64,000 nucleotides of DNA from Eubacteriales bacterium (GCA_045588245.1 JAZNDW010000036.1:8068-72067), one strand, 5' to 3'. Positions 8,419-63,617 are shown, counted from the first letter of the stretch. Notes: generated by a model from the sequence alone, not told the origin. Made by a program: numbers and translations.

Positions 8419-8573
8419 AATAACCTCATATAAAGTTAAATCATTATCTTATAAGCCAGCCGAAATAAACACGGCTTTTTAGATTATAACACGAAGACTT
8501 CGTCTTTTCAATAATAAATAATCCATATTTAACCCGTTAAATTGCAATTTTATAACTGTTATTTCCAAAAATA

Positions 8574-8602
8574 TTGATTTTTACGAAAAATAATGGTATC
8601 AT
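8574..8602 (+). promoter_or_regulatory. Sigma-A type promoter with extended -10 for the DivIVA-domain gene
   Basis: TTGATT, 17-nt spacer, TATCAT preceded by TGg (TGnTATCAT). Confidence 0.4.
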
Positions 8603-8665
8603 AACGTAAGTGGTAAATCATATTTACCGAGTACCGCCCAAAGCGGCGGATAACAGAGGTTAAAG

Positions 8666-9190
8666 ATGTCTGCAAATTTATTCAAAACCGCCATGGGCGG
8701 ATACAATAAGTCCGAGGTTGACGCATACATTCTTCACGTCAGCAAAAAGGGCGAACGCGAACGCCGCGATTACGAGAAAAAGATCGAGGTTTTAGAAGCT
8801 GAGATCAAAAAGCTCAAAGGTGAAAAAGAAAACGTCGAATCCCTTTTGAAAGAAGACGAAGCCATCATCTCCGCATTTCATAATATGGTCTCGGAAGCGG
8901 GCAGCGAAGCCGCTGATGCGCCTGCAGCGGAGGCTCTCCCCGAGGAAACGTCTGAGGTCCTCGAAAAATCGAAGCGTTACGATGAAATTAGCCGTCAGCT
9001 CGGCGAGATCATCATAAAAGTAAACACTGACGCGGCACGCATCATCAGCGAAGCCGAAACAGAAGCAAACGCCATCCGTCAAAAAGCGGCGCTTGACATA
9101 AAGCTTGCCGCCGAAAGCATCACGCAGAAGCTTTCTGAGATCGCAAACGAAACGGCAAACGCAGTTGCCGACAGCACCGACGCCGAATAA
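8666..9190 (+). CDS. DivIVA-domain coiled-coil protein
   Basis: GAGG RBS. The N-terminus, FKTAMGGYNKSEVDAYI, is the DivIVA N-terminal motif. The rest is charged coiled coil. Confidence 0.75.
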   Translation: MSANLFKTAMGGYNKSEVDAYILHVSKKGERERRDYEKKIEVLEAEIKKLKGEKENVESLLKEDEAIISAFHNMVSEAGSEAADAPAAEALPEETSEVLEKSKRYDEISRQLGEIIIKVNTDAARIISEAETEANAIRQKAALDIKLAAESITQKLSEIANETANAVADSTDAE

Positions 9191-9191
9191 C

Positions 9192-10016
9192 GTGAACATC
9201 GGTAAAAAGATCCGCTCGCTGCGCATCCAACGCGGCATGACGCAAAAGGAGCTTGCAGGCGGTGAGATCACACGCAATATGCTCTCTCGCATCGAAAACG
9301 GTGCCGCGTATCCTTCGATCGGCTCACTGTTGTATTTAGCGGAACGGCTTGAGGTCTCCCCGGCATACTTTTTCGATGAATCTGAAAAGACGCAAAGTGA
9401 AATTGAAAGTATGCTCTGCTCATACTATAACGAAGGCGAATACGAAAAATGTATCACCGCGGGCTCTGCCCTCCCCGCAACCGAATCGGGCAACATTTTG
9501 GCGCAGTGCTATCTGAACATGGCAGTTTCCGACTATCTTCAGATGAAGTTCAAAAGTGCGCGTGAATCGCTTTTATTGGCGAAGGAACAGTGCGAGTCAG
9601 CCGCCGACATAACCGACACGGTTTATAACATTGTGATGTGCCTACTCAAGCTGCAGGACGTTGCGTTTGACACGGGACTTGACGAGCTTTCCTCCGATAC
9701 GATCCCTTCGTATAAAGCGATGACGGCTAACTTTTATATGTTCCTGCTGGCAAACGCAGACTCGTGCGCCGACGCAGACGAGCTGTCCAAAAACAGCCTC
9801 TTCGGGCTTCACATTTCGGCAAGAGCGGAAATGTCCGCAGGAAACTACGCCTCTGCCGTAGATATACTGAAGATCGCAAAAACGCGCATTTCCGACACCA
9901 CACCGCCCGCACTTTCGTTTATGATCTACGACGATCTTGAAGCATCTGCCATCAAGACCGAAAATTATAAAGAAGCTTACGAGGCGTCGCGGCTCAAAAA
10001 TGCCGTCGGAAAATAA
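9192..10016 (+). CDS. XRE-family HTH regulator with a helical, TPR-like C-terminal domain
   Basis: The track ORF 9105-10016 overlaps the upstream gene. An in-frame GTG at 9192 sits 1 nt after the upstream TAA. VNIGKKIRSLRIQRGMTQKELAGGEITRNMLSRIENG is an XRE HTH. The C-terminal ~200 aa are helical repeats. Confidence 0.75.
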   Translation: MNIGKKIRSLRIQRGMTQKELAGGEITRNMLSRIENGAAYPSIGSLLYLAERLEVSPAYFFDESEKTQSEIESMLCSYYNEGEYEKCITAGSALPATESGNILAQCYLNMAVSDYLQMKFKSARESLLLAKEQCESAADITDTVYNIVMCLLKLQDVAFDTGLDELSSDTIPSYKAMTANFYMFLLANADSCADADELSKNSLFGLHISARAEMSAGNYASAVDILKIAKTRISDTTPPALSFMIYDDLEASAIKTENYKEAYEASRLKNAVGK

Positions 10017-10040
10017 GATACCGCACCATAGAATCGTATA

Positions 10041-10083
10041 AAGGGGACAGAGAACGAAGCCGTTCTCTGTCCCCTTTTTTGTT
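10041..10083 (+). terminator. Rho-independent terminator
   Basis: AGGGGACAGAGAACG / CGTTCTCTGTCCCCT hairpin followed by T6. Confidence 0.85.
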
Positions 10084-10218
10084 TATCCCGATCCGTTATA
10101 CCACGCATTGTTATATATAACGATAGATAACACAACATTTTGCGAACATTTTCGGGTCGAAGTATTTATATATAATGACGAAATTTCTCCGACAAGAGAA
10201 AAACTTCGGGAAAAGCTA

Positions 10219-10333: not shown

Positions 10334-11812
10334 ATGCAGAAAAAAGATTTCGAAGCGGTTGCAGAAGCGCTCAAGCGCGCTCAGCAGAAAACGACCGCTG
10401 CGATCAAAGACTTTCTCCGCGATCTTGACGGCAAAAACGAAACTGCCGCTCTCGCAGGAAAGCGCCTTACGGCAAGAGCCCGCATTACTGCTCTCTTTGA
10501 CGAAGGCACATTTGTAGAAACGGGAGCTTTCATCAAGCGCCGTGCTACAGAATTCGACCCCGAAGCCGTTGAATCTGACGACTTTGAAGCCGTCATCACC
10601 GGTTACGGCTCCGTAAACGGCAACCTCGTTTACGCTTTCGCTGAAGATCATTTCCGCAGCAAGGGTGCTGTGGGCGAAGCGCACGCAAAGAAAATCTGCG
10701 CGCTTTACGATCTCGCAATCAAGAACGGCGCTCCCGTTGTCGGCATCTTCGACAGTAACGGCGCATTCATTCTTGAAGGCACATCCGCACTTTCCGGTTA
10801 CGGAAAGATCATGTCGTCCGTTTCCCGTGCATCGGGCGTTATTCCGCAGATCGCCATCATCGCAGGCACCTGCGCCGGCTCCGCAGCCGTTATCGCTTCC
10901 ATGTTTGATGTCACGGTTCTTTCCGAACTCGACGGCAAATTCTACGTAACTCTCGGCAACGAATCCTCCCCTGCAATCTCTGTTGCAGACGAGATCTCCG
11001 CCATCAAAGAGGCGCAGGCACTTCTTTCCGTTCTTCCTTCCAACAACTGCGAAGGTACCGTACGTTACGACAATAACGCCAACGGCACCGTTGACGTTTC
11101 CTATGTTGCAAACGGAGGCTACGACGTTAAATCCGTTATCGCTGCCGTTGCTGACAACGGCGCTTATAAGGAGCTCTACGCAGCATACGCTCCCGAGCTC
11201 GTTACGGTTCTTTCTTCCGTCGGCGGTATCGTTACCGGTATCGTTGCAACTAACCCCGCCGTAAACGAAGGCAAGCTCACCTCTGCTGCAGCAAAGAAGG
11301 CTTCCCGCATGATCAGCCTTTGCGACAGCTTCAACATTCCCGTACTCACGCTCGTTGACGGTAAGGGTCTTGACCTTGAAAACGCTCCCGAAGCAAATGA
11401 GCTTTCCAAGCTCGCATTTGCTTACAGCTCCGCTGAATGTCCGAAGATCACCGTTATTGTCGGTGAAGCTTACGGTGCGGCTTACACCGTTCTCGGAAGC
11501 AAGTCCATCGGCGCAGATATGGCTCTTGCTCTTCCCACCGCCGTTATCAGCGCTATGCCCGCGAAGTCCGCAGTTGCACTGCTTTGGGACGAAAAATTCG
11601 CAGGTGCATCCGATCCCGCAGCTCGCCGTGCAGAGCTTGAAGAAGAGTGGAACTCCACGTTCGGCTCCGCCGTTGATGCCGCTTACAAGGGCGAAATTGA
11701 CGATATTATCGACTCCGCAGAGCTTCGTGCGCGTATCGCCGCGTCTCTTGAGATGCTCTCGATGAAAAACGACAGAGAGCCGTCCAGACGTCATATCAAT
11801 CTTCCCCTTTAA
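10334..11812 (+). CDS. Acyl-CoA carboxyltransferase (12S / MmdA / GcdA-type alpha subunit)
   Basis: The track start at 10328 is TTG. ATG 10334 lies 7 nt after GGAGG. GKRLTARARITALFDEGTFVE, AVGEAHAKKI and DSNGAFILEG fit the carboxyl-transferase family. Confidence 0.85.
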   Translation: MQKKDFEAVAEALKRAQQKTTAAIKDFLRDLDGKNETAALAGKRLTARARITALFDEGTFVETGAFIKRRATEFDPEAVESDDFEAVITGYGSVNGNLVYAFAEDHFRSKGAVGEAHAKKICALYDLAIKNGAPVVGIFDSNGAFILEGTSALSGYGKIMSSVSRASGVIPQIAIIAGTCAGSAAVIASMFDVTVLSELDGKFYVTLGNESSPAISVADEISAIKEAQALLSVLPSNNCEGTVRYDNNANGTVDVSYVANGGYDVKSVIAAVADNGAYKELYAAYAPELVTVLSSVGGIVTGIVATNPAVNEGKLTSAAAKKASRMISLCDSFNIPVLTLVDGKGLDLENAPEANELSKLAFAYSSAECPKITVIVGEAYGAAYTVLGSKSIGADMALALPTAVISAMPAKSAVALLWDEKFAGASDPAARRAELEEEWNSTFGSAVDAAYKGEIDDIIDSAELRARIAASLEMLSMKNDREPSRRHINLPL

Positions 11813-51533: not shown

Positions 51534-53141
51534 ATGGCATTCATCAAAGCATACACGCGAGATATCGTCGACAGACGGACGTACCCGAGCGCGCTCGCCC
51601 ATAGCGTTCATTTTGCCGTAAGCTATAACGGTGTCGATTTCACTCCCCTCAAAGGTAACTACGGTATCCTTTTTCCTCGCGCGGAGATAGGCTCGAAAAA
51701 CGAGATCCTCGAACGCGGAGCGGCATCTCCGAGGATCGCCGACCTCGGCTATAAATACGTCATCGTTGCCGAGTACGTCGATGCGGCAGGTAACGTGATC
51801 GACGAAGAATCTCTTTGGGCGTGGGAAACGTTTGATTTCGTCAGCTTTTCCGAGTCGGGACTCGTCAAAAAGTCCGAGCTCTTGCGTGAGCTGTCGGTTG
51901 CAACCGAAACTATAGCTATCGAAACATCGCTTATCGAGGACATCATAAACGCATACATGCCCGTTCATTTCGTCCGCGCAGACCTGCCCGAAAGCGTAAC
52001 GCTCTGCGATATTTCCGAGCTTGACGTCGTCCGTGCCGTCTGCCGATATTCCGACGGCTCGACTGACGTAAAGCCGATCGTTTGGGACACAGAATCGGTC
52101 TGCGGCAAGGGTACATACAAAATAAACGGACAGATCATACAGCCCGAGTTTTCCTCGCCGTGTATCGAAGGCTTTGCCGATCCGACGGTGTTCCGATGGG
52201 AAGATAAATGGTACTTTTTAGCGACGAACGACAAAACGGGAAACGTCGGATTGTACGCTTCTCGCGCCGACACGGTAGAGGGACTGTTCACCCCCGACAA
52301 TCCGCCTGTATGCATTTTGCCGTATAACGAAGAAAAAGGCTTGATCTCGACGTTCTGGGCGCCCGAATTTCACGTGATCGGCGGCGAGCTTTATATACTT
52401 TTCGCCGTCGGCGGAAAGGTATGGTCGCCGCAGTCGCACATGATGAAGCTGAAGCACGGCGGCGACATTCTGTCGCCCGACTCGTGGTATGATCCTGTGC
52501 GGATGATGAAAAAGGACGGCACCCCTCTCGGTGTCGGAGAGATCACGCTTGACATGACGTATTTTTCCGCGAACGGACGCCACTTTGTCGCGTGGTCACA
52601 GCGCACGTTTTCGCCCGTTGACTCGGGTTCGATGATCTACATCGCCGAGATCTCGCCCGACGTGCCGTATCGACTCATAAGCGATCCGACGCTGATAGCG
52701 CGTCCGCTTTATGGCTGGGAGAATCAAAGCGGCACCGTCAACAACGAAGGCCCGTACGCGCTTTTGCGCGACGGCAGGATATATTTAGCGTATTCGGGCG
52801 GCGCTGCCGGCGGATATTCGTATTCGCTCGGCTATCTAATCGCCGACGCCGACGCGGACCTGCTTGTTGCGGAAAGCTGGCGCAAAACGATCACGCCCGT
52901 TCTGACCTCGTACGATACTGTTGACCGAGAGGGATCGGGACACAACGCGTTTTACATCGGAGACGACGGCAAAACGATGATAACGTATCACGCGCAAAGG
53001 CTGAACTCCGACGGCAAGCGCAACACGTACATCCACCGCGTTCATTTTTCGCACAACGGTTATCCGATACTCAATATGATCCCCGAACGCGATCTGCCAA
53101 GCGGCGCACACGCCGTCAGCATCACGGTCACGATCGAATAA
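51534..53141 (+). CDS. Glycoside hydrolase family 43 protein (beta-xylosidase / alpha-L-arabinofuranosidase type), cytoplasmic, with an extra N-terminal domain
   Basis: It has GFADPTVFRWEDKWYFLATND, FWAPEFHVIGGELYILFA and NNEGPYALLRDGRIYLAYSG (five-bladed propeller motifs). No signal peptide is present. Confidence 0.85.
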   Translation: MAFIKAYTRDIVDRRTYPSALAHSVHFAVSYNGVDFTPLKGNYGILFPRAEIGSKNEILERGAASPRIADLGYKYVIVAEYVDAAGNVIDEESLWAWETFDFVSFSESGLVKKSELLRELSVATETIAIETSLIEDIINAYMPVHFVRADLPESVTLCDISELDVVRAVCRYSDGSTDVKPIVWDTESVCGKGTYKINGQIIQPEFSSPCIEGFADPTVFRWEDKWYFLATNDKTGNVGLYASRADTVEGLFTPDNPPVCILPYNEEKGLISTFWAPEFHVIGGELYILFAVGGKVWSPQSHMMKLKHGGDILSPDSWYDPVRMMKKDGTPLGVGEITLDMTYFSANGRHFVAWSQRTFSPVDSGSMIYIAEISPDVPYRLISDPTLIARPLYGWENQSGTVNNEGPYALLRDGRIYLAYSGGAAGGYSYSLGYLIADADADLLVAESWRKTITPVLTSYDTVDREGSGHNAFYIGDDGKTMITYHAQRLNSDGKRNTYIHRVHFSHNGYPILNMIPERDLPSGAHAVSITVTIE

Positions 53142-54558: not shown

Positions 54559-56727
54559 ATGGGACCTATGATGGGACCGCCCCCCGGATGGGGCGGAAGA
54601 CGAAATGATGACTTAAAACCTCCAAAGCCGAAAAACATCAAAGAGGTGCCGCAGTATCTCTGGCGCCTCATTTCAGGCTTCGTTTTCAGACTATTCTACA
54701 TATTCAAGCTCGTATGGGATGCACGTCCGTCGCTATTATTCCTTATGATGTTTATGAGCGTGTTCAACGGTATCGTGCCCGTATTGGGATCGCTTATCTC
54801 AGCCGACTTGATCAACTCGCTCGTTGCGCCTTTGAAAGTCGAGCAATACACCGTCGTCGGTAAATTCATAATCAATCTGACGGATGCCGCCGCGACGTCG
54901 GACGGTTGGCGCGTAATAATGTCGCTGTTGATACTGCAGTTCTCATATATGCTCTTCAACTCGGTGGTCTCGAGCCTTTATAATATGTTCGTCAACATCT
55001 CCGGCGAGATCGTTACGAACCATATCAAAGTCAAGATCATCAACAAGGCAAAGGAAGTAGACATCGCAAGCTTCGACCTGCCCTCGTTCTACGAAAAGCT
55101 TGAGAACGCAAACCGCGAAGCGGGTTCGCGTCCGATCCAGATCATGCGCTCCACCTTCAGCCTCGTTTCGACTATCATCACAATGACGAGCTATATCGTC
55201 ATTCTCTCGAACGTTGCTTCGTGGATCTCGTTCGTTGTGATCCTTCTGGCTATCCCCTCTGCCATTATCAACTTCACGTACAGAAGAAAGACCTTCTTCT
55301 ATATGCGTCGCCGCAGTAAAGACCGCCGCCAGATGGACTATTACAGCAACCTGATGGTAAACAAGGACATGGTAAAAGAGATCCGTCTTTTCGGACTTTC
55401 CGACACTTTTATCGCACGCTTCCGCGAAACGTTCAAGAAATATTACGCAGGCATCAAACGCCTCATCATCAACGAAAACATCTGGCACATTTCCGTGTCG
55501 ATCTTCTCTTCCGTCGTCAACTGTTTGCTTTATCTCTTTATTGCAAAGCAGGTATTTGCAGGCATATTTGCTATCGGTGATTACTCGCTTTACACCGGTG
55601 CGCTTTCGTCCGTTTCACACGGTGTTGCAAGCCTTATCGGCGTCGTTTCTTCCATTTATGAGGGCGGTCTTTTCATTGACAACCTCATCCTCTTCATGAA
55701 AGAAGAAAAGCGCATCAAGCCGAAGCTTGACTGCAATCCCGAAAACAAGCTCGCCGAGCCGCGACACGTTAAGCGCCGCTGCGGTCACACGATCGAATTC
55801 AAAAACGTATGCTTCAGCTATCCCGGCACCGAGCGTATGGTTCTCAAAAACATCAATTTCAAGCTGAATGAAGGCGAGACCTGTGTTCTTGTCGGCTTGA
55901 ACGGCGCAGGCAAAACGACGCTCATCAAGCTTCTGACGCGTCTATATGACCCGACGGAGGGTGTGATCCTGCTCGACGGATACGACATCCGCGAATACGA
56001 TATCGACGAGCTTTATCAGATGTACGGAATCATATTCCAAGACTTCGGAAAGTATGCCGTTTCCGTTTCGGAAAACATCAAGTTTGGTGATATCTTCAAC
56101 GAGCACCAAGACGGTGACGTCCCCGAAGCTGCCCGTCAGTCGAGCGCAGACGTATTCATCGACAAGCTTCCCGACAAGTATGACACGCCTTTGATGCGTT
56201 ACTTCGAAGAAAACGGAATCGAGCTTTCGATCGGTCAATGGCAAAAGCTTTCGATCGCACGTGCGTTCTACTCCGATTCCGATTTCCTTATCCTCGACGA
56301 GCCGACGGCTTCCCTTGACGCCATCGCCGAGCAGGAGATCTTCAATCAGTTTGACAGTCTGCGTCAGGACAAAACGACTATCTTTGTTTCTCACAGACTC
56401 TCAAGCGCCACCGTTGCATCTAAGATCATCGTTCTTGAATACGGTGAGATCATTGAAGAGGGTAACCACAGCCAGCTTATGAACAAACGCGGCAGATATT
56501 GGGAACTCTTCTCAACGCAGGCAAAGCGTTACCTCACAGAGGTTGACGAAAACGACACGCTTGACTCCGCAGGAACCGCTCCCGCTCTCGCCGATGGCGA
56601 AAATGCTCATGCCTTCGGCAGACATAAACGCGGTATGGCTCCTCATGAAGACCATGGACATCATGGACACCACGAACACCACGGACCTCGCGGTCCGCGC
56701 GGTGGACACCGTCCCGACGGCGAATAA
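54559..56727 (+). CDS. ABC exporter (TMD-NBD, presumably homodimeric) with a His-rich C-terminal tail
   Basis: It has GLNGAGKTT, LSIGQWQK, LILDEPTASLD and VSHRLSS. The tail reads HEDHGHHGHHEHHGPRGPRGGHRPDGE. Confidence 0.88.
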   Translation: MGPMMGPPPGWGGRRNDDLKPPKPKNIKEVPQYLWRLISGFVFRLFYIFKLVWDARPSLLFLMMFMSVFNGIVPVLGSLISADLINSLVAPLKVEQYTVVGKFIINLTDAAATSDGWRVIMSLLILQFSYMLFNSVVSSLYNMFVNISGEIVTNHIKVKIINKAKEVDIASFDLPSFYEKLENANREAGSRPIQIMRSTFSLVSTIITMTSYIVILSNVASWISFVVILLAIPSAIINFTYRRKTFFYMRRRSKDRRQMDYYSNLMVNKDMVKEIRLFGLSDTFIARFRETFKKYYAGIKRLIINENIWHISVSIFSSVVNCLLYLFIAKQVFAGIFAIGDYSLYTGALSSVSHGVASLIGVVSSIYEGGLFIDNLILFMKEEKRIKPKLDCNPENKLAEPRHVKRRCGHTIEFKNVCFSYPGTERMVLKNINFKLNEGETCVLVGLNGAGKTTLIKLLTRLYDPTEGVILLDGYDIREYDIDELYQMYGIIFQDFGKYAVSVSENIKFGDIFNEHQDGDVPEAARQSSADVFIDKLPDKYDTPLMRYFEENGIELSIGQWQKLSIARAFYSDSDFLILDEPTASLDAIAEQEIFNQFDSLRQDKTTIFVSHRLSSATVASKIIVLEYGEIIEEGNHSQLMNKRGRYWELFSTQAKRYLTEVDENDTLDSAGTAPALADGENAHAFGRHKRGMAPHEDHGHHGHHEHHGPRGPRGGHRPDGE

Positions 56728-56925: not shown

Positions 56926-58242
56926 GTGCAGGTAAAGGCTGTTAAATTCGGAGGTTCTTCGCTTTCTGACGCAGAACAGTTCCGTAAAGTTTATAATATA
57001 ATCAAATCGGACGAAAGCCGCAGATACGTTGTGGCATCGGCTCCGGGCAAACGTTATCCCGAAGACACAAAGGTCACGGATATGTTCTACGCTTGCTATG
57101 ATATGGCACTCGCAGGCCTTGACATTGACCCATTCTTCGAAGGAATCAAGAAAAGATTTAATTCTATCATTGATGAGCTCGGCTTGTCGCTCGATCTTTC
57201 CGAAGAATACGAAAAGATCAAAACATCGCTCCGCCGCCGTGCGGGACGCGATTACGCGGCATCTCGCGGTGAATATTTGAACTCGATAATCTTGGCTGAG
57301 TATCTCGGCTACGATTTCATCAACGCATCTGAGGTCATATTCTTTAACGAGGACGGCTCTTTTGACGAAGACCGCACCAACCGCGTTTTGTCAGGTGTGC
57401 TCAAGCGTCACGAACGCGTCGTTATCCCCGGTTTTTACGGTGCTATGCCCAACGATACGATAAAGACGTTCTCACGCGGCGGTTCCGACATCACGGGTTC
57501 TATCGTTGCCCGTGCCGCCAACGCTATGATTTACGAAAACTGGACGGACGTATCCGGCTTTCTTATGGCTGATCCGAGAATCGTAAAAGATCCGCTCGGC
57601 ATCGAAACGGTAACGTACCGCGAGCTTCGTGAGCTTTCCTACATGGGTGCAGGCGTGCTTCACGAAGACAGCGTTTTCCCCGTAAGATTTGCGGGAATAC
57701 CGATCAATATCAGAAACACCAACCGACCCGAAGATAAAGGCACGATGATCGTCGCCTCTACCGACAAGCACGATAAAAAGCACGTTATCACAGGTCTTGC
57801 AGGTAAGAAGCATTTCTCCGTCATACGTATCGAAAAAGATAAAATGGCATATCAGAAAGGTATGCTCCACCGCATAATCGAAATACTCGATTATCACGGT
57901 GTTCATGCCGAGCATATCCCGTCCGGTATCGACACGATGTCTATCGTTGCAGACACCGCTCAGCTTGAAGGAAAATACGAGATCATCACCGAATCGATAA
58001 CACGAGCCGTTACACCCGATTTTATGATAATTGAGGACGGTCTTGCGCTCATCGCCGTCGTTGGCCGCGGCATGGTACGCTCCAAAGGTACTGCGGCACG
58101 CGTATTCAAAGCTGTTGCAAATGCGGGAATAAATATCCGTATGATCGACCAAGGCTCCTGTGAGCTTAACATTATTGTCGGTGTCGATGCGTCGGATTTC
58201 GAAAATGCTTTGTGCGCAATTTACAAGGAATTTGTAAAATAA
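56926..58242 (+). CDS. Aspartate kinase (monofunctional, with C-terminal ACT domains)
   Basis: GTG start. It has VKFGGSSLSD, SRGGSDITGS and a C-terminal ACT-like region, LIAVVGRGM. Confidence 0.88.
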   Translation: MQVKAVKFGGSSLSDAEQFRKVYNIIKSDESRRYVVASAPGKRYPEDTKVTDMFYACYDMALAGLDIDPFFEGIKKRFNSIIDELGLSLDLSEEYEKIKTSLRRRAGRDYAASRGEYLNSIILAEYLGYDFINASEVIFFNEDGSFDEDRTNRVLSGVLKRHERVVIPGFYGAMPNDTIKTFSRGGSDITGSIVARAANAMIYENWTDVSGFLMADPRIVKDPLGIETVTYRELRELSYMGAGVLHEDSVFPVRFAGIPINIRNTNRPEDKGTMIVASTDKHDKKHVITGLAGKKHFSVIRIEKDKMAYQKGMLHRIIEILDYHGVHAEHIPSGIDTMSIVADTAQLEGKYEIITESITRAVTPDFMIIEDGLALIAVVGRGMVRSKGTAARVFKAVANAGINIRMIDQGSCELNIIVGVDASDFENALCAIYKEFVK

Positions 58243-58267
58243 GCCGATTTTTGTACGTTTATCCCAA

Positions 58268-58296
58268 TTGACATGATTGGCGCGACAATGTATAAT
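58268..58296 (+). promoter_or_regulatory. Sigma-A promoter driving the T-box leader
   Basis: TTGACA (58268-58273), 17-nt spacer, TATAAT (58291-58296). Confidence 0.7.
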
Positions 58297-58310
58297 ATTC
58301 GCATAAATAA

Positions 58311-58612
58311 GCTTTGATGGAGAAAACGGTACTCAATATGCCGGCACAGAGAATGGATCCGCACCGAACGGTGTGCGCTGGAAGATCCTGCGGCAGACGT
58401 GTATCGACTCACTCCGGAGCTCGTCAAGGAACGGATATATATCTCATTAGACTGACGCGGAAGCCCTCCGTTATCACAGGGCAAGTCATCGCTTCCATTA
58501 AGCCGTGACCGTTGAGCTGCATCCCTATTCGGATGAACGCGGGTGGTACCGCGCGGCATTTTTGAAAGCTGCGTCCCGTATCGTAAGATCTACGATACGG
58601 GACTTTTTATTT
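58311..58612 (+). promoter_or_regulatory. T-box riboswitch leader (tRNA-sensing transcription attenuator), apparent specifier CUC (Leu)
   Basis: Stem I has a GA/K-turn base (GAUGGAG / CUCCGGAGC), an AGAGA bulge (58348-58352) and a distal GCUGGAA. The specifier loop reads GA-CUC-A (CUC = 58408-58410). The F-box is CCGUUA. The T-box core is GGGUGGUACCGCG (58541-58553). The antiterminator competes with a 13-bp terminator (58573-58603) followed by U5. Confidence 0.85.
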
Positions 58613-58638
58613 TCTCAAATCAAAAAAGGAGAAACACA

Positions 58639-60303
58639 ATGGAATTTTTGAACTACACCCTCGGCGCATGGATGGACAAAATAGCGGCGGAATATCCCGA
58701 CCAACCTGCCGTTGTTTACACCCATAAATTTGACTACAAGCGCACCTATCGCACCTTCAACGAAGAATGCGACAAGATCGCAAAGTCATTTCTCGCCATC
58801 GGCATCAAACGCGGCGACCACGTAGCTATCTGGGCAACAAACTATCCGCAGTGGATGCTCACCCTTTTCGCTTGCGCTAAGATCGGTGCTGTGCTCGTAA
58901 CCGTTAATACTGCATATAAGATCCACGAAGCTGAATATCTGCTCAAGCAGTCCGATACAAAGGTGCTCGTTATGAGCACGGGGCTGAAAGACGTCAACTA
59001 CGTTGACATCGTGAACCGTCTGTGCCCCGAATTTGCCGAGGAGCCCGAGCTTCGCGAGCATAACTGCGAGCGTCTCCCCTATCTCCGCTCCGCGATCACG
59101 CTTGATGAAGAATCCTACCCCGGAATGTACAATTGGCGCGATCTTTATCCGCTCGCCGACACCGTTACCGACGAAGAATACGACGCGGCACGCCAAGGGC
59201 TTGACTGTCACGATGTCGTAAACATGCAGTACACGTCGGGCACGACGGGCTTCCCGAAGGGCGTTATGCTGACGCACTATAATATTCTCAATAACGGCAA
59301 AACGATCGGCGACCGCATGAAGTTCACAACGAACGATAAGCTCTGCATCACTGTTCCCTTCTTCCATTGTTTCGGCCTTGTGCTTGCGATGATGGCGTCC
59401 ATCACGCACGCGACGACGATGGTCCCCGTTGACCGTTACTCTCCCCGTATCGTTATGGAAGCTCTCGAACGCGAACAGTGCACCGCCGTGCACGGCGTGC
59501 CTACGATGTTCATCGGTATGCTTGAGCATCCCGATTTCAAACAGTTCAAGTTCAATCTGCGCACCGGTATCATGGCAGGCTCGCCCTGCCCGATCAAGGT
59601 CATGCAGCAGGTCGTTGACGACATGGGCATGAGCGAGATCACTATCGTTTACGGACAGACTGAGGCTTCGCCCGGATGCACGCAGACGACGACGGACGAC
59701 CCTCTCGAACGCCGCGTCAACACAGTCGGACGCTCGTTCCCCGGCGTTGAAACGAAGATCATCGACCCCGAAACGGGCGAAACGCTCGGTCCGGGCAAGA
59801 TCGGTGAGTTCTGCGCACGCGGATACAACATCATGAAAGGCTATTACAAGATGCCCGAGGCAACGGCTCAGGCAATCGATAAGGACGGGTGGCTCCACAC
59901 GGGCGACCTTGCCTGCTGTGACGAGGACGGCTACTACAAGATCACAGGCCGCATCAAAGACATGATAATCCGCGGCGGCGAAAACATCTATCCGAAGGAG
60001 ATTGAAGATTTTATCTACACACATCCGAAGGTTTCCGACGTTCAGGTCATCGGCGTACCGAGCAAAGCGTACGGCGAGGAGATCATGGCTTGCGTTATCA
60101 CAAAGGAAGGCGAAACGCTTACCGAACAGGACGTCAAGGATTACGTTCTCGCGTCAATGGCGAAGCACAAGGTTCCGAGCTACGTTATGTTCGTCCCCGC
60201 ATTCCCCATGAATGCCGCAGGCAAGATCCTCAAATATAAGCTTCGTGAAATGGCAGTTGACGAACTCAATCTGCACGAAGCGAACTTGATCGAAACCGCG
60301 TAA
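58639..60303 (+). CDS. AMP-forming acyl-CoA synthetase (ANL superfamily; medium/branched-chain fatty-acid CoA ligase-like)
   Basis: The start is re-set to ATG 58639 (AAAGGAGAAA RBS); the track ORF start lies inside the T-box. It has MQYTSGTTGFPKGVMLTH (AMP-binding P-loop), YGQTEASP, WLHTGDL and RGGENIYPKEIE. Confidence 0.88.
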   Translation: MEFLNYTLGAWMDKIAAEYPDQPAVVYTHKFDYKRTYRTFNEECDKIAKSFLAIGIKRGDHVAIWATNYPQWMLTLFACAKIGAVLVTVNTAYKIHEAEYLLKQSDTKVLVMSTGLKDVNYVDIVNRLCPEFAEEPELREHNCERLPYLRSAITLDEESYPGMYNWRDLYPLADTVTDEEYDAARQGLDCHDVVNMQYTSGTTGFPKGVMLTHYNILNNGKTIGDRMKFTTNDKLCITVPFFHCFGLVLAMMASITHATTMVPVDRYSPRIVMEALEREQCTAVHGVPTMFIGMLEHPDFKQFKFNLRTGIMAGSPCPIKVMQQVVDDMGMSEITIVYGQTEASPGCTQTTTDDPLERRVNTVGRSFPGVETKIIDPETGETLGPGKIGEFCARGYNIMKGYYKMPEATAQAIDKDGWLHTGDLACCDEDGYYKITGRIKDMIIRGGENIYPKEIEDFIYTHPKVSDVQVIGVPSKAYGEEIMACVITKEGETLTEQDVKDYVLASMAKHKVPSYVMFVPAFPMNAAGKILKYKLREMAVDELNLHEANLIETA

Positions 60304-60395: not shown

Positions 60396-61220
60396 ATGAA
60401 GCTATCATTCTCAACACTTGGATGCCCCGATTGGACGTTTTCAGAGATATTCGCCGTTGCCTCCGACCTGAAGTATGACGGAATTGAGATCCGCGGCATC
60501 GCAGATGAAATATACGCACCGAAGATCGGCGTTTTCGCAAAGAATAAGCTTGACGAAACGAAAGGAAAGCTTGACGAGGCCGGTATTGAGATCCCGATAC
60601 TGACGTCGGGCGCTTACCTTATCGGCAACGATAACATCGAAGCTTCCATCAAAGAAACGAAGGATTATATCGACCTTGCTACCGCTCTCGGCGCACCGTA
60701 TGTCCGTATGATGGGCGAGAAAACGCCCGATCCCGTCATTTCCGACATTGATCTTGACAACGTACGCAAGAATTATACCGAGCTTTGCCGCTACGCGGAC
60801 GACAACGGCGTAAAGCTTCTTATTGAAACGAACGGCTGCTTTGCCGACACAAAGCTTCTTTCCGAGTTTTATACCTCCGTTGATTCGGACGGTAAGGGCG
60901 TGCTTTGGGATATTCATCATCCCGTTCGTTATTTCAACGAAACACCTGCCGAAACGGCAAGCAACATCGGCTCGTACGTCCGTCACGTCCACGTGAAGGA
61001 CTCCGTTGTGGGAACAAACGGCAAGCTCACGTATATGCTCACAGGCTACGGCACGCTTCCCGTTGACGACTGCATCAAGGTGCTCATTCTTCTCGGCTAC
61101 GATGCTTACCTTTCTTATGAATGGGTAAAGCGTTGGTCACGCGATCTTGCCGACCCCGGCATCGCTTTCTATCAGTACCTCGATTACATGAGATACGCCG
61201 TTAAAAAGGCAAAAAAATAA
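60396..61220 (+). CDS. Xylose-isomerase-like TIM-barrel protein (sugar phosphate isomerase/epimerase family)
   Basis: It has MKLSFSTLGCPDWTF, DGIEIRG and LLIETNG. Its own TTGCAG-17 nt-TATAAT promoter lies in the 92-nt gap upstream. Confidence 0.8.
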   Translation: MKLSFSTLGCPDWTFSEIFAVASDLKYDGIEIRGIADEIYAPKIGVFAKNKLDETKGKLDEAGIEIPILTSGAYLIGNDNIEASIKETKDYIDLATALGAPYVRMMGEKTPDPVISDIDLDNVRKNYTELCRYADDNGVKLLIETNGCFADTKLLSEFYTSVDSDGKGVLWDIHHPVRYFNETPAETASNIGSYVRHVHVKDSVVGTNGKLTYMLTGYGTLPVDDCIKVLILLGYDAYLSYEWVKRWSRDLADPGIAFYQYLDYMRYAVKKAKK

Positions 61221-61228
61221 CCGTCAGC

Positions 61229-61268
61229 AAAAAAGCTCGGGGAGGCACCGATGGCGGCGCCTCCCCGT
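61229..61268 (-). terminator. Terminator of the HIT gene (also closes the convergent TIM-barrel gene)
   Basis: CGGGGAGGC / GCCTCCCCG hairpin, with T6 on the minus strand. Confidence 0.75.
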
Positions 61269-61284
61269 TAAAATGTTTATATAC

Positions 61285-61635
61285 TTATTCTTTTTCGGCA
61301 AAAACGTGTGCCGGAAGCTGTGCGCCACCGATAACGTGGAAATGCAGATGATGAACGCTCTGGCAAGCATCGGGACCGCAATTTGTGATAACGCGGTATC
61401 CGTTTTCGGCTCCGCCGAGCCCCGCGATTTTGGGAATGCACTCAAAAATGTGTGCAACAACAGCGCTGTTTTCCGCTGTCACAGCGTCAACAGACGCTAT
61501 GTGCGTCTTCGGGATAACGAGCACGTGGCAAGGCGCTTCGGGCGCGATGTCGCGGAAGGCGTAAATGAGCTCATCTTCATATACCTTCGACGAAGGAATA
61601 TCACCGGCGATTATTTTGCAAAAAAGGCAATCCAT
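61285..61635 (-). CDS. HIT-family (histidine triad) nucleotide-binding protein
   Basis: It has CLFCKIIAGDIPS and SVHHLHFHVIGG. Confidence 0.93.
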   Translation of the reverse strand: MDCLFCKIIAGDIPSSKVYEDELIYAFRDIAPEAPCHVLVIPKTHIASVDAVTAENSAVVAHIFECIPKIAGLGGAENGYRVITNCGPDACQSVHHLHFHVIGGAQLPAHVFAEKE

Positions 61636-61708
61636 ATTTTTTCTCCGTTCATTACTGTGGTTTAGTAAATCATATCACAAAAACGATAGTTTTTCAAGAG
61701 GCATAAAA

Positions 61709-62524
61709 ATGTATAAGATTTTTGACATTCATACGCATACGTACCCGGAGATACTTTCCGTTCGCGCAACGCAGAATCTCGGCAAATTTTATAATTTTCA
61801 CGTTGAGGCAAAAGGAACCGTCGCCGATCTGATGGAAGAAAGCAGGCGCGCAGGTATTTCGGGATTTCTCATCCTCGGCGTCGCAACGAACGCGCGTCAG
61901 GTGCCGCGCGTCAACGAAGCCGTTGCCGCCGACGTGAAGCGTGCGCGTGAAGCAGGCTTTGCCGCTTTCGGTTACGCAGGTATGCATCAGGACACCGTCG
62001 ATTTTTCTGCTGAACTCGATTACGCAGAATCTCTCGGTCTGTCGGGTGTGAAGCTGCACCCCGACATTCAGGGTGCCGACATCGACGACGAACGGTTCTT
62101 CCCTCTTTACCGCGAGCTGGAGGCGCGCGATCTTCCGCTTTATCTGCACATGGGCGACGACCGTGAAGAGTACCGCTACAGCATGCCCGAAAAGCTTGCG
62201 CGCGTGCTTGATATGTTCCCAAAACTGCGTGTCTTCGCGGCTCATTTCGGCGGATACAAAGCATGGGACGAGGCTGTAACACACCTGGCGGGACGTAAAA
62301 ACATTTGGTACGACACGTCCTCTGCTCTTTGGGCTATGACACCCACATGCGCGCGTTATTTGATAGACAAGCTTGGCGCGGAAAACATAATGTTCGGCAC
62401 AGACTCACCCGTCGTTCACTCGGACTCGTATCTTGATCTGTTCATGCAGATCGATCTGTCCGAAGAGGAAAGACGCGCTATCCTTTGGGATAACGCGGCA
62501 AAATTTTTCGGCATCGATGACTGA
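61709..62524 (+). CDS. Amidohydrolase-2 / TIM-barrel metal-dependent hydrolase family protein
   Basis: The start is re-set to the internal Met (MYKIFDIHTHTYPE). The coordinate is taken from the track frame and may be off by 1 nt. It has GVKLHPDIQG and IMFGTDSP. Confidence 0.75.
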   Translation: MYKIFDIHTHTYPEILSVRATQNLGKFYNFHVEAKGTVADLMEESRRAGISGFLILGVATNARQVPRVNEAVAADVKRAREAGFAAFGYAGMHQDTVDFSAELDYAESLGLSGVKLHPDIQGADIDDERFFPLYRELEARDLPLYLHMGDDREEYRYSMPEKLARVLDMFPKLRVFAAHFGGYKAWDEAVTHLAGRKNIWYDTSSALWAMTPTCARYLIDKLGAENIMFGTDSPVVHSDSYLDLFMQIDLSEEERRAILWDNAAKFFGIDD

Positions 62525-63617
62525 CGCATATTCTCTGCCCCCGATCGGTACGCCGGACGTCTGGCAGCGCATGGCAAACGAAAAAGTACCGCTTTTTATG
62601 TACGGGACGGGTAACGGTGCTGATAAAATTATCGACATAATGGAGTCGCGCGGCATCAAGTTAAACGGAATTTTCGCCTCGGACGGCTTCGTCCGAAGCC
62701 GCACCTTCCGCGGCTTCCCCGTTCGCTCGTACGGCGATATTTGCGGCGAATGCCGCGATTTTGCCGTCGTCCTTGCCTTCGGCTCGTCGCGACCCGAAGT
62801 TCTTCAAAACGTCGAAAAAATCGCCTCCGAGCGCCCCCTATACTGCCCCGACGTTCCTGCTGTCGGTGACACTCTGTTCGACAGCGCGTTTTACGACGCG
62901 CTCCGCGATGATTTTCTCACCGTTTACGATTCCTTTGCCGACGATGAGTCGCGCCGCGTCTATTGCGAGATAATCAAATATAAGCTTTCGGGCGACGTTT
63001 CGCATCTGTACGCATCGGCATCTGCAGGTGACCCCGGTGCGGACGTCTTGCGTTACGGCAAATACGAGTCCATGCTCGACCTCGGCGCTTACACAGGCGA
63101 CACCGTCAAATCGGCGATAGAGTCGATGCCGCATCTGCAACGCGTAATCGCCGTTGAACCCGACCTAAGAGCTTACAAAAAGCTGTCGGCATACGCCGAC
63201 ACGGTCGGATTCCCTCTCGTCACTCCCATAAACGCTGCCGCTTGGGATGAGGATACCACTCTAACGTTTACGTCAAACGCGAGCCGCGGCTCGACGCTCG
63301 ATTCGGGTGACCGCGCACACCGCCGCGGTGAGCGCGAAGTCAGCGTCACGGCGCTCACGCCCGACACCGCCGCCAACGGCGAGCGTATCGATTATGTCAA
63401 ATATGACGTTGAGGGCGCGGAAGCACGCGCACTTTACGGCTCACAGAGTCTTATCCGTTCGTGCTGTCCCGATATGCTCGTGTCGCTTTACCACAGAAGT
63501 GAGGACCTTTACGCACTCCCAATGCTCGTAAGAAAGCTTGCACCCGATCATAAGCTCTACCTACGCCGTGCCGTCGGTGTGCCCGCGTGGGACATAAATC
63601 TTTACGTCATACGTTAA
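62517..63617 (+). CDS. FkbM-family SAM-dependent methyltransferase
   Basis: ATG 62517 overlaps the upstream gene's end by 8 nt. It has MLDLGAYTGDT, VIAVEPD, TLTFTSN and IDYVKYDVEGAE. Confidence 0.8.
   Translation: MTDAYSLPPIGTPDVWQRMANEKVPLFMYGTGNGADKIIDIMESRGIKLNGIFASDGFVRSRTFRGFPVRSYGDICGECRDFAVVLAFGSSRPEVLQNVEKIASERPLYCPDVPAVGDTLFDSAFYDALRDDFLTVYDSFADDESRRVYCEIIKYKLSGDVSHLYASASAGDPGADVLRYGKYESMLDLGAYTGDTVKSAIESMPHLQRVIAVEPDLRAYKKLSAYADTVGFPLVTPINAAAWDEDTTLTFTSNASRGSTLDSGDRAHRRGEREVSVTALTPDTAANGERIDYVKYDVEGAEARALYGSQSLIRSCCPDMLVSLYHRSEDLYALPMLVRKLAPDHKLYLRRAVGVPAWDINLYVIR

Follow-up and report, generated by a model that had tools for sequence, protein, structure and literature searches.

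T-box leaders sense uncharged tRNA and usually turn on genes that restore the supply of the cognate amino acid. The described cases closest to the one reported here are the leucine T-boxes of leuS and ilv-leu in Bacillus and Clostridia (Rfam RF00230). A second related system is metabolic. Fibre-degrading anaerobes of rumen and gut classically depend on branched-chain volatile fatty acids, and this trait matters economically. Allison and co-workers reportedly established in the 1960s-70s that rumen anaerobes reductively carboxylate branched-chain acids to branched-chain amino acids (BCAAs), and this carboxylation uses oxidoreductases of the VOR or PFOR type. To our knowledge, the activating enzyme of the pathway has no assigned gene and the pathway has no known regulator. 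The third system is MbcS, the methylbutyryl-CoA synthetase of Staphylococcus aureus. This AMP-forming enzyme salvages exogenous branched short-chain acids, prefers 2-methylbutyrate and isobutyrate, handles isovalerate poorly, and supplies FabH for membrane lipids (PMC10026030, PMC11167679). It is an example of a branched short-chain acyl-CoA ligase that works for lipids and not for amino acids (PMC10026030).

Acyl-CoA ligases are absent as T-box targets from the accessible part of one T-box survey (PMC2494555) and from another survey (PMC3766115). In the searchable literature we found no T-box described in front of acyl-CoA ligase or VOR genes, and an earlier mention may exist beyond it. Here we describe a 64-kb stretch of DNA (64,000 nucleotides, called the window) in which a predicted leucine T-box precedes a putative acyl-CoA ligase gene.

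A sigma-70-type promoter, TTGACA-17 nt-TATAAT, lies at 58268..58296 (+ strand, as are the following features unless stated otherwise) and matched 12 of 12 consensus positions; similar promoters were found just 5' of the leaders in related loci. It is followed at 58305..58581 by a T-box leader RNA consisting of Stem I, a Stem II/IIA-B region with CCGUUA (58468-58473), Stem III, and the antiterminator. The promoter and the leader, with its K-turn, AGAGA, CCGUUA and T-box core, had been claimed in an initial annotation made from the sequence, and both claims held. Scoring against RF00230, which the same annotation had proposed as a check, gave a divided answer: the match was full length (model 1-219) with an E of 4.6e-11 in a 501-nt search, but its 53.8 bits lay below the gathering score of 93, which places the leader outside the family on that measure. 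Because of this score, a scan of the whole window with Rfam at the gathering threshold returned no match; the T-box was reported only under an E-value cut-off. With a profile of orthologous leaders, the window leader was recovered at an E of 5.5e-22. The orthologous leaders scored 84-123 bits against the Rfam T-box model, four of them at least 93.

Stem I (58311..58420), delimited by folding and by covariance-model alignment, has a K-turn base, a specifier loop, the AGAGA bulge (58348-58352), and a distal loop. In the K-turn base, GC..UGAU-GGAG (58311-58322) pairs with CUCC-G-GAGC (58412-58420). The AGUA/GAA S-turn columns of the specifier loop align to A-CG/GA- and are non-canonical in the window copy. 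The distal loop contains a lineage-specific extra hairpin, CGCACCG-AAC-GGUGUGCG (58360..58377), which is missing from the leaders of relatives that are 90%, 80% and 71% identical; in the Rfam alignment this loop shows a 26-nt insert against 11 nt in the model. The hairpin is probably the reason for the low Rfam score, and variable linker regions add to the shortfall.

The covariance model placed the specifier at CUC (Leu; 58408..58410), followed by A58411 and the helix strand CUCC, and Stem I folded alone gave the same specifier internal loop, so that both methods agree with the codon first proposed. The codon is followed by a purine and lies directly 5' of the closing helix. Specifiers of related leaders were read by profile column, by Rfam alignments, and by visual checks. 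In all 36 leaders (35 loci and the window) the specifier column encoded Leu (CUC in 34 and CUG in two), and no non-Leu specifier precedes the orthologous ligase operons. Rfam-based alignments gave concordant specifiers for loci L075, L027, L037 and L018. The specifier is bracketed by six base pairs that covary: over 40 leaders, 99.6% are paired and 61 cells have changed on both sides. This pairing was matched by 0 of 500 shuffles and fell to 40-54% when the helix was slid by one column, with loss of the codon register that the helix fixes.

The antiterminator (58539..58578, from the covariance-model alignment) has the core GGGUGGUACCGCG (58541-58553), the UGGU bulge (58544-58547), and the 3' strand UGCGUCCCG (58570-58578). 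The model alignment flanks the bulge with the helices CGGG/CCCG and GCGCG/UGCGU. The intrinsic terminator (58573..58613) is formed by a 13-bp stem (58573-58603) with a 5-nt loop, followed by TTTTTATTTT. Its 5' arm GUCCCG is shared with the 3' strand of the antiterminator, which makes the two structures mutually exclusive; both the bulge and the shared strand had been noticed initially. All 41 related leaders with a recognisable core have UGGU, and an equivalent terminator hairpin (-12 to -28 kcal/mol) with a T-run was found in 41 of 41 related leaders. Ahead of a ligase that is 90% identical, the leader sequence had diverged and the T-box features were retained. UGGU fits an A73 discriminator and hence tRNA-Leu, as had been argued, but the Ile and Val leaders of related loci likewise read UGGU; for this reason the bulge is consistent with Leu and does not discriminate Leu from Ile or Val. 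No tRNA genes were found within the 64-kb window. We predict that the leader works by transcription attenuation, as a T-box riboswitch specific for tRNA-Leu whose CUC is read by the anticodon GAG.

The gene behind the leader encodes a 554-aa acyl-CoA ligase of the ANL superfamily (58639..60303), with the domains PF00501 (AMP-binding, 320 bits) and PF13193 (AMP-binding_C, 62 bits). The initial annotation had identified it correctly and needed two adjustments: the start codon is the ATG at 58639 and not at 58640, and the terminator ends about 15-25 nt, not 30 nt, before the RBS (GGAG, 58628-58631). The best NCBIfam model was NF009233 (PRK12583, "fatty acid CoA ligase family"), of which the ligase is not a member, with 749 bits against a cut-off of 832. 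Orthologues that are 57-90% identical occur in many Clostridia. A sequence search of the PDB related the ligase to solved CoA ligases with E of about 1e-75 or weaker, and found no close characterised homologue of the ligase, of the TIM barrel, or of the amidohydrolase described below. From its genomic context, we propose the protein as a candidate isovalerate (branched short-chain acid)-CoA ligase.

The initial annotation had overlooked the partner of the ligase, a xylose-isomerase-like TIM barrel of 274 aa (60396..61220; PF01261, 99 bits), as well as a PF04909 amidohydrolase and a degenerate LeuA paralogue. No + strand terminator was found in the 92-nt gap between the ligase and TIM genes. 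In 54 of 79 cases the barrel forms the N-terminal part of a fusion with the ligase, and in nine it is encoded next to it; in the window its gene is probably co-transcribed with the ligase as an obligate partner. An AlphaFold2 model of the barrel (pLDDT 96.5) had ketose 3-epimerases, UlaE and IolI as nearest folds. All of 31 sequences keep residues E144, D172, H199 and E242, which, judged by position alone, resemble the metal/catalytic tetrad of ketose 3-epimerases. A 13-bp GC-rich hairpin 3' of the TIM gene (61238..61267, no strand assigned) probably closes the ligase-TIM unit and also serves as the terminator of a convergent HIT gene. This opposite-strand gene separates the unit from a PF04909 amidohydrolase (61565..62524, from Pfam; the true start is probably near 61709), which is 36% identical to one encoded directly 3' of the ligase in about 15 loci. 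By gene order it is a conserved neighbour of the ligase, predicted not to be co-transcribed with it in the window lineage. A tblastn search of the 64-kb window for VOR, PFOR, ilvE, leuA-like and P-loop genes found none.

For the comparison we used 80 species-representative orthologue loci, in which T-boxes were found with a whole-locus regex and an nhmmer profile. A T-box lies ahead of the ligase operon in 35 of these loci and in the window, all with Leu specifiers, a positive answer to the initial question whether orthologous ligases are found behind such leaders; in the remaining 45 of 80 a ligase-linked T-box was not seen. A regex confined to 800 nt 5' of the tblastn match gives 11 T-box loci, as it misses the TIM-fused and leuA-like-led operons. 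The same question had been put for Ile or Val T-boxes, and these occur with distant paralogues of the ligase, which lie behind T-boxes with AUC (Ile) in five cases and GUA (Val) in one. Next to these paralogues, on their 3' side, come P-loop, Fer4 delta, vorB, beta and gamma genes. They lack the TIM domain and have an HTH-cupin instead, though they lie in the same clusters. Many of these loci belong to genomes from the rumen, the gut and anaerobic digesters.

Several related operons contain further genes, which in some Leu T-box operons include ilvE and a complete VOR. In L037, a single Leu T-box is followed by a leuA-like gene, TIM::ligase, ilvE, P-loop, delta, vorB, beta and gamma genes; as far as the P-loop gene, neighbouring genes are -15 to 30 nt apart, the delta ORF fills a 210-nt space before vorB, and the T-box's own terminator is the sole strong one on the + strand. 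Ligase, ilvE and VOR occur together in L037, L048 and L054. In L031 and L077, VOR and ilvE adjoin the leuA-like-ligase operon, and a T-box was detected ahead of it in L031. The Leu T-box operon runs on into a PFOR-type oxidoreductase in L046, L060 and L064, and PFOR is also linked in L052. VorB scored 552 bits (cut-off 399) and IlvE 486 bits (cut-off 307). The oxidoreductase that the initial annotation had proposed to look for elsewhere in the genome is thus encoded, with IlvE, in related Leu T-box operons, but not in the 64-kb window. The window and 16 related loci have the ligase with neither an oxidoreductase nor a transaminase as neighbour.

The leuA-like gene leads 18 operons. Its product scored 315 bits, far under the LeuA cut-off of 532; the HxH metal ligands are missing in 18 of 18 sequences, and an intact RDGEQ motif was found in 0 of 18. 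Judged by these residues the protein is probably not a synthase, and we speculate that it may be a leucine-binding regulatory subunit.

The RNA element with its specifier, the conserved pairing of Leu T-box and ligase, and the ilvE and oxidoreductase genes in the same operons of relatives are observed. The explanation that we favor, with a probability of about 0.6, is that Leu-tRNA starvation induces the activation of isovalerate, which would then be converted to leucine by reductive carboxylation and transamination. We infer the response of the window leader from its structures. With charged tRNA-Leu, the 13-bp terminator would fold and transcription would halt ahead of the genes. When uncharged tRNA-Leu builds up, its anticodon would pair with the CUC of Stem I and its free NCCA end with UGGU; this pairing would steady the antiterminator and let RNA polymerase enter the two-gene unit of the ligase and the TIM-barrel partner, which we take to be metal-dependent. 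Branched-chain acid salvage would be entered, specifically for leucine, through the ligase, which would convert exogenous isovalerate, ATP and CoA to isovaleryl-CoA. A branched-chain 2-oxoacid:ferredoxin oxidoreductase of the VOR or PFOR type would carboxylate this reductively to 2-oxoisocaproate, and IlvE would transaminate the latter to leucine. We infer the ligase substrate and the direction of flux from the operons of relatives: an AMP-forming ligase makes the step from acid to acyl-CoA essentially irreversible, and a ligase, an oxidoreductase and a transaminase in one starvation-induced operon are sensible only in the anabolic direction.

The TIM barrel, the amidohydrolase and the degenerate LeuA have no place in this three-step route, so the true chemistry may differ. 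A wider interpretation, which we offer tentatively and with some doubt, is a T-box regulon with which gut, rumen and digester Clostridia rebuild BCAAs from scavenged acids. It would have separate Leu-, Ile- and Val-wired ligases, and its leucine module (an epimerase-like TIM::ligase, often with the PF04909 amidohydrolase, and a dead LeuA paralogue as a possible leucine sensor) would do chemistry beyond isovalerate activation.

These three proteins also bear on another explanation, which we consider unlikely, in which the Leu T-box is real and the TIM::ligase acts on a carboxylate other than isovalerate, making a leucine precursor by a new route. The barrel would couple CoA activation to an enolate-type step, which could be an isomerisation, an epimerisation or a dehydration, and the amidohydrolase and the LeuA-like protein might take part. 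The frequent fusion or adjacency of barrel and ligase, the confident AlphaFold2 model with its invariant epimerase-like tetrad, the amidohydrolase directly 3' of the ligase and the leuA-like gene at the head of operons agree with it, and conversion of isovalerate to leucine needs none of the three proteins. However, ilvE and VOR or PFOR in the same operon already complete a route from a branched acyl-CoA, and the replacement of the barrel by an HTH-cupin in the Ile and Val paralogues of the same clusters suggests that the N-terminal domains are accessory. We know of no leucine pathway that uses enzymes of the TIM/amidohydrolase type.

Isovalerate might instead be activated for lipids. Rumen bacteria put it into lipids and leucine alike, and on leucine starvation isovaleryl-CoA could prime iso-odd branched-chain fatty acids, so that leucine is spared from degradation for membranes, as in salvage of the MbcS type. 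MbcS, itself an ANL ligase, supplies FabH with exogenous branched acids (PMC10026030), and the window and the 16 loci where the ligase stands apart from oxidoreductase and transaminase genes fit such a role. The partners that are linked to the ligases in Leu and Ile T-box operons are nevertheless ilvE and 2-oxoacid:ferredoxin oxidoreductases, and these, run oxidatively under starvation, would waste the amino acid; among the conserved neighbours there are no fatty-acid-synthesis genes (fab, pls). We regard lipid synthesis as an improbable explanation of the operons, and it is not mutually exclusive with a role in leucine synthesis.

The score of 53.8 bits, the 18-nt insertion in a distal loop whose usual role is to stack on the tRNA elbow, and the non-canonical S-turn could mean that the window leader is a decayed or constitutive relic ahead of a housekeeping fatty-acid ligase. 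We rejected this as very improbable: the promoter is perfect, and the specifier, its purine, the K-turn, CCGUUA, the 13-nt core, UGGU and the strong overlapping terminator are intact and are kept in relatives despite heavy sequence turnover. With a dead sensor, the intact terminator would also shut off a gene whose orthologues are 57-90% identical, which argues against decay. A role in leucine or isovalerate catabolism, as for yngI of the B. subtilis leucine-degradation operon, was rejected as barely credible even though the ligase belongs to what we take to be the same broad "FACL-like" group as enzymes neighbouring leucine-degradation genes, because a T-box induces on shortage of charged tRNA-Leu, the opposite of a catabolic need, and isovaleryl-CoA dehydrogenase, methylcrotonyl-CoA carboxylase and HMG-CoA lyase are not among the conserved neighbours.

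If isovalerate salvage for leucine is the correct explanation, a rumen and gut pathway known for 60 years gains a testable gene for its unnamed first step. The T-box serves as a built-in label of amino-acid specificity, with one ligase family for leucine and a second for isoleucine and valine, which makes the assignment directly testable. Metagenome annotation would gain a marker of cross-feeding on isovalerate, 2-methylbutyrate and isobutyrate, and the TIM-barrel domain and degenerate LeuA paralogue may conceal new enzymology or a feedback mechanism.

Compared with known proteins, the window TIM barrel has the fold of the ketose 3-epimerase/UlaE/IolI branch of PF01261 (TM 0.75-0.82 to 3cqj, 3vni and 1i60, which are UlaE, DPEase and IolI), with the invariant Glu, Asp, His and Glu in family-like positions. 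It differs in being only 15-20% identical and in its setting, under a leucine T-box and paired or fused with a ligase, outside any sugar-metabolism context. The LeuA-like protein of related loci shares with LeuA (2-isopropylmalate synthase) an HMGL-like TIM barrel and a C-terminal regulatory domain, and its gene comes first behind the Leu T-box, as real leuA often does. MbcS is likened to the window ligase by the function proposed for the latter; it has no reported T-box and no TIM partner.

The rumen pathway needs an activating enzyme, a 2-oxoacid:ferredoxin oxidoreductase and IlvE, the set that is linked to the ligase in related operons, and its habitat agrees with that of the rumen, gut and digester loci. 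What differs here is a ligase family as the putative activating step and control by Leu, Ile and Val T-boxes, together with a TIM barrel, an amidohydrolase and a LeuA-like protein outside the classical scheme. The window leader has in common with the leuS and ilv-leu T-boxes the RNA family, the predicted mechanism, CUC and UGGU, the same competition of terminator and antiterminator, and the same proposed leucine-supply logic. It differs from them in its extra distal-loop hairpin and sub-threshold Rfam score and in its target, an ANL ligase with a TIM partner in place of an aminoacyl-tRNA synthetase, a canonical biosynthesis gene or a transporter; this would add the salvage of acids fermented by neighbouring microbes to a T-box regulon known for synthetases, de novo biosynthesis and transport.

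The ligase leader, a T-box RNA (Rfam RF00230) at 58305-58581, is preceded by a sigma-70 promoter, TTGACA-17-TATAAT (58268-58296), which matches the consensus at 12 of 12 positions. The K-turn base (GC..UGAU-GGAG paired with CUCC-G-GAGC), the AGAGA motif of Stem I (58348-58352), CCGUUA (58468-58473), and the T-box core GGGUGGUACCGCG with its UGGU bulge (58541-58553) are all present. The 3' strand of the antiterminator, UGCGUCCCG, overlaps the 5' arm of the terminator (58573-58603), a 13-bp stem followed by TTTTTATTTT. The promoter and every one of these elements lie where the initial annotation, made without database searches, had placed them. The covariance model put the specifier, the codon read by the tRNA, at 58408-58410 (CUC, next base A), and Stem I folded alone gave the identical specifier loop, in agreement with the Leu assignment made earlier. 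The S-turn is non-canonical.

The Rfam T-box model had been proposed as a check on the element. In a local search it aligned end to end (1-219, E 4.6e-11), but the 53.8 bits obtained fall short of the gathering score of 93, and a standard Rfam scan of the whole window thus reported zero RNA families. The low score is probably due to an extra hairpin in the Stem I distal loop (58360-58377), missing from the leaders of the nearest relatives; the usual role of this loop is to stack on the elbow of the tRNA. Apart from the Rfam score, the S-turn, and the distal loop, the RNA has the structure of an ordinary T-box. Two ORFs overlap it: a 112-aa antisense ORF (58221-58559, - strand) and a segment that would lengthen the ligase at its N-terminus from a GTG start (58543-58638, + strand). 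Neither is likely to be real, since the stretch is already explained by the T-box, the terminator, and a good RBS followed by an ATG at 58639.

The regulated gene (58639-60303) encodes, as first described, a 554-aa ANL enzyme (PF00501 and PF13193). Its start was corrected to the ATG at 58639, and its RBS lies ~15-25 nt 3' of the terminator instead of the 30 nt first given. The best curated family, NF009233 ("fatty acid CoA ligase family"), scored 749 bits, under its 832-bit cut-off. An aspartate kinase gene (56926-58242) lies immediately 5' of the leader, and a gene for a 274-aa xylose-isomerase-like TIM-barrel protein (TIM; 60396-61220) lies 3' of the ligase; the order aspartate kinase, leader, ligase, TIM is kept in two close relatives, L081 and L082. 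Both also share the position of a histidine triad nucleotide hydrolase (HIT-family) gene (61285-61635, - strand), which in the window stands between the TIM gene and an amidohydrolase gene. HIT enzymes split acyl- and aminoacyl-adenylates, so the protein may conceivably be connected with the ligase, which forms adenylates. The surrounding genes appear unrelated: besides the aspartate kinase, they encode an ABC exporter (54559-56727), a glycoside hydrolase of family GH43 (51534-53141), and a methyltransferase of the FkbM type (62433-63617). L082, the relative at 80% identity, has a leucyl-tRNA-synthetase-like gene (8441-9662, - strand; tRNA-synt_1 and tRNA-synt_1_2) ~3 kb 3' of the ligase and TIM genes.

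The comparison set consisted of 80 orthologue loci (ligases 57-73% identical) from species-representative genomes, nearly all of uncultured Clostridia sampled from the rumen, the gut, termites, and digesters. A profile made from the first leaders detected 44 T-box leaders across these loci and the window. A T-box stood ahead of the ligase or its operon in 35 of the 80 loci and in the window; for the other 45 loci, the profile search found no ligase-linked T-box. All 36 ligase-operon leaders carried a Leu codon in the specifier column (34 CUC, 2 CUG), which bears out the expectation that orthologous ligases would also sit behind Leu T-boxes. The Rfam alignments of four leaders (L075, L027, L037, L018) agreed with the profile column on the specifier codon; these scored 84-123 bits, and three (114-123) exceeded the gathering threshold.

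To examine the register without selection for complementarity, the strands of the K-turn-proximal helices were read in 40 leaders at profile columns set beforehand. We found that 99.6% of the cells were paired and that 61 had changed on both sides; 0 of 500 shuffles matched the observed values, and shifting the partner strand by one column lowered pairing to 40-54%. Every one of the 41 leaders in which a core could be detected keeps UGGU, a stable hairpin, and a T-run. The leaders of relatives with 90% or 80% identical ligases keep these elements too, although their sequence is heavily diverged. On this evidence, the association of Leu T-box and ligase is conserved and under selection. The L026 Leu T-box (1384-1610 and 1880-1954) has ~270 nt of GC-rich repeats between its Stem I/II part and its antiterminator; upstream of the L015 ligase (2277-2432) only the T-box 5' part (Stem I, CUC specifier) was found, without core or antiterminator; and one T-box in L012 (~9916-10166, - strand) is unrelated, reads UGG (Trp) at its specifier, and stands ahead of a 455-aa opposite-strand gene.

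Partner genes were identified by clustering neighbours across the related loci. TIM is fused to the ligase N-terminus in 54 of 79 cases (PF01261, PF00501, and PF13193 in one protein), is an adjoining gene in nine, the window among them, and lies more than two genes away or is missing in 16. Its confident AlphaFold2 model (pLDDT 96.5) resembles ketose 3-epimerases, UlaE, and IolI (TM 0.75-0.82; 15-20% identity). The invariance of E144, D172, H199, and E242 suggests an active metal-dependent enolate enzyme. A PF04909 amidohydrolase gene follows the ligase directly in ~15 loci; the window has a copy 36% identical (61565-62524), parted from the ligase in this lineage by the convergent HIT gene and so not co-transcribed with it. 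A leuA-like gene, absent from the window, comes first in the operon in 18 related loci (e.g., L075 3721-5133, L037 3669-5132). Its products all lack the HxH metal ligands, none has an intact isopropylmalate synthase RDGEQ, and all retain the C-terminal LeuA regulatory domain; the protein may be a leucine-binding pseudoenzyme.

Also recurrent beside the ligase are ilvE (486 bits; cut-off 307), vorB (552 bits; cut-off 399), and genes for oxidoreductase beta, POR gamma, and small 2x[4Fe-4S] delta subunits and a NUBPL-like P-loop protein. At L037, one Leu T-box is followed by leuA-like, TIM::ligase, ilvE, P-loop, delta, vorB, beta, and gamma genes, with gaps of -15 to 30 nt as far as the P-loop gene. 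The apparent 210-nt space upstream of vorB is the delta ORF, and the sole strong same-strand terminator is that of the T-box itself. At three further loci (L046, L060, and L064), the operon behind the Leu T-box continues directly into a PFOR-type oxidoreductase. The suggested link to branched-chain 2-oxoacid:ferredoxin oxidoreductases thus holds in related loci, within the same Leu T-box operons, but neither an oxidoreductase nor an ilvE gene was found within the 64 kb of the window. At the level of sequence, these data show a transcription-attenuation T-box with a Leu (CUC) specifier, placed to control the ligase-TIM unit, and, in relatives, the same switch placed to govern ligase, IlvE, and 2-oxoacid:ferredoxin oxidoreductase.

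Five loci (L027 8771-9052, L029 8559-8836, L070 6222-6485, L075 8543-8802, and L044) have a further T-box, its specifier AUC (Ile), ahead of a distant ANL paralogue, and L044 has a third, with GUA (Val), likewise ahead of an ANL paralogue (both L044 T-boxes: 8513-8781 and 11133-11410). The paralogues are 24-27% identical to the window ligase and have HTH_XRE and Cupin_2 at the N-terminus in place of TIM. At four loci of this group, the paralogue is followed by genes for the P-loop protein, Fer4 delta, VorB, beta, and gamma. Since paralogues sit behind Ile and Val T-boxes and orthologues behind Leu T-boxes, the ligases, besides the oxidoreductases, are each wired to a Leu, Ile, or Val sensor. 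Such separate wiring is expected of ligases that each activate the corresponding branched-chain acid (isovalerate, 2-methylbutyrate, or isobutyrate).

T-boxes switch on genes upon uncharged tRNA. AMP-forming ligases convert acids to acyl-CoAs essentially irreversibly. VOR and PFOR work in both directions and, when supplied with reduced ferredoxin, can turn acyl-CoAs into 2-oxoacids by carboxylation; in rumen anaerobes, leucine, isoleucine, and valine are formed by this route, in reactions that depend on ATP and CoA. Under leucine starvation, scavenged isovalerate would be activated to isovaleryl-CoA, carboxylated to 2-oxoisocaproate, and transaminated to leucine. The comparative tests support this isovalerate salvage, first proposed from the window alone, and the partner proteins extend it; we give it a probability of about 0.6. 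Our reserve comes from the missing oxidoreductase and ilvE in the window, the 45 of 80 loci without a ligase-linked T-box, and the near-obligate TIM partner. Because the simple three-step route has no place for a TIM-type enolate step, the chemistry may be richer than plain isovalerate activation and involve TIM, although we consider this rather unlikely. That the ligase provides primers for lipids and so spares leucine, in the manner of Staphylococcus aureus MbcS (PMC10026030), has a still smaller chance; this reading is compatible with the leucine route but leaves ilvE and VOR in starvation-induced operons unaccounted for. A decayed T-box is very unlikely, and a catabolic ligase even more so.

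The switch type and the pathway chemistry are already known. In the full-text literature searched, a T-box linked to an acyl-CoA ligase, isovalerate, or a branched-chain oxidoreductase was not found, and an earlier mention is possible. The T-box targets surveyed in PMC3766115 and in the main text of PMC2494555 are synthetases, biosynthetic genes, and transporters, and the ligase is unlike any of these; the unusual feature is the target, not the RNA. What these loci add to the known systems is a further class of T-box target, a proposed entry enzyme for the route from branched-chain acid to leucine, and a conserved TIM::ligase fusion with a presumably dead LeuA-like accessory protein.
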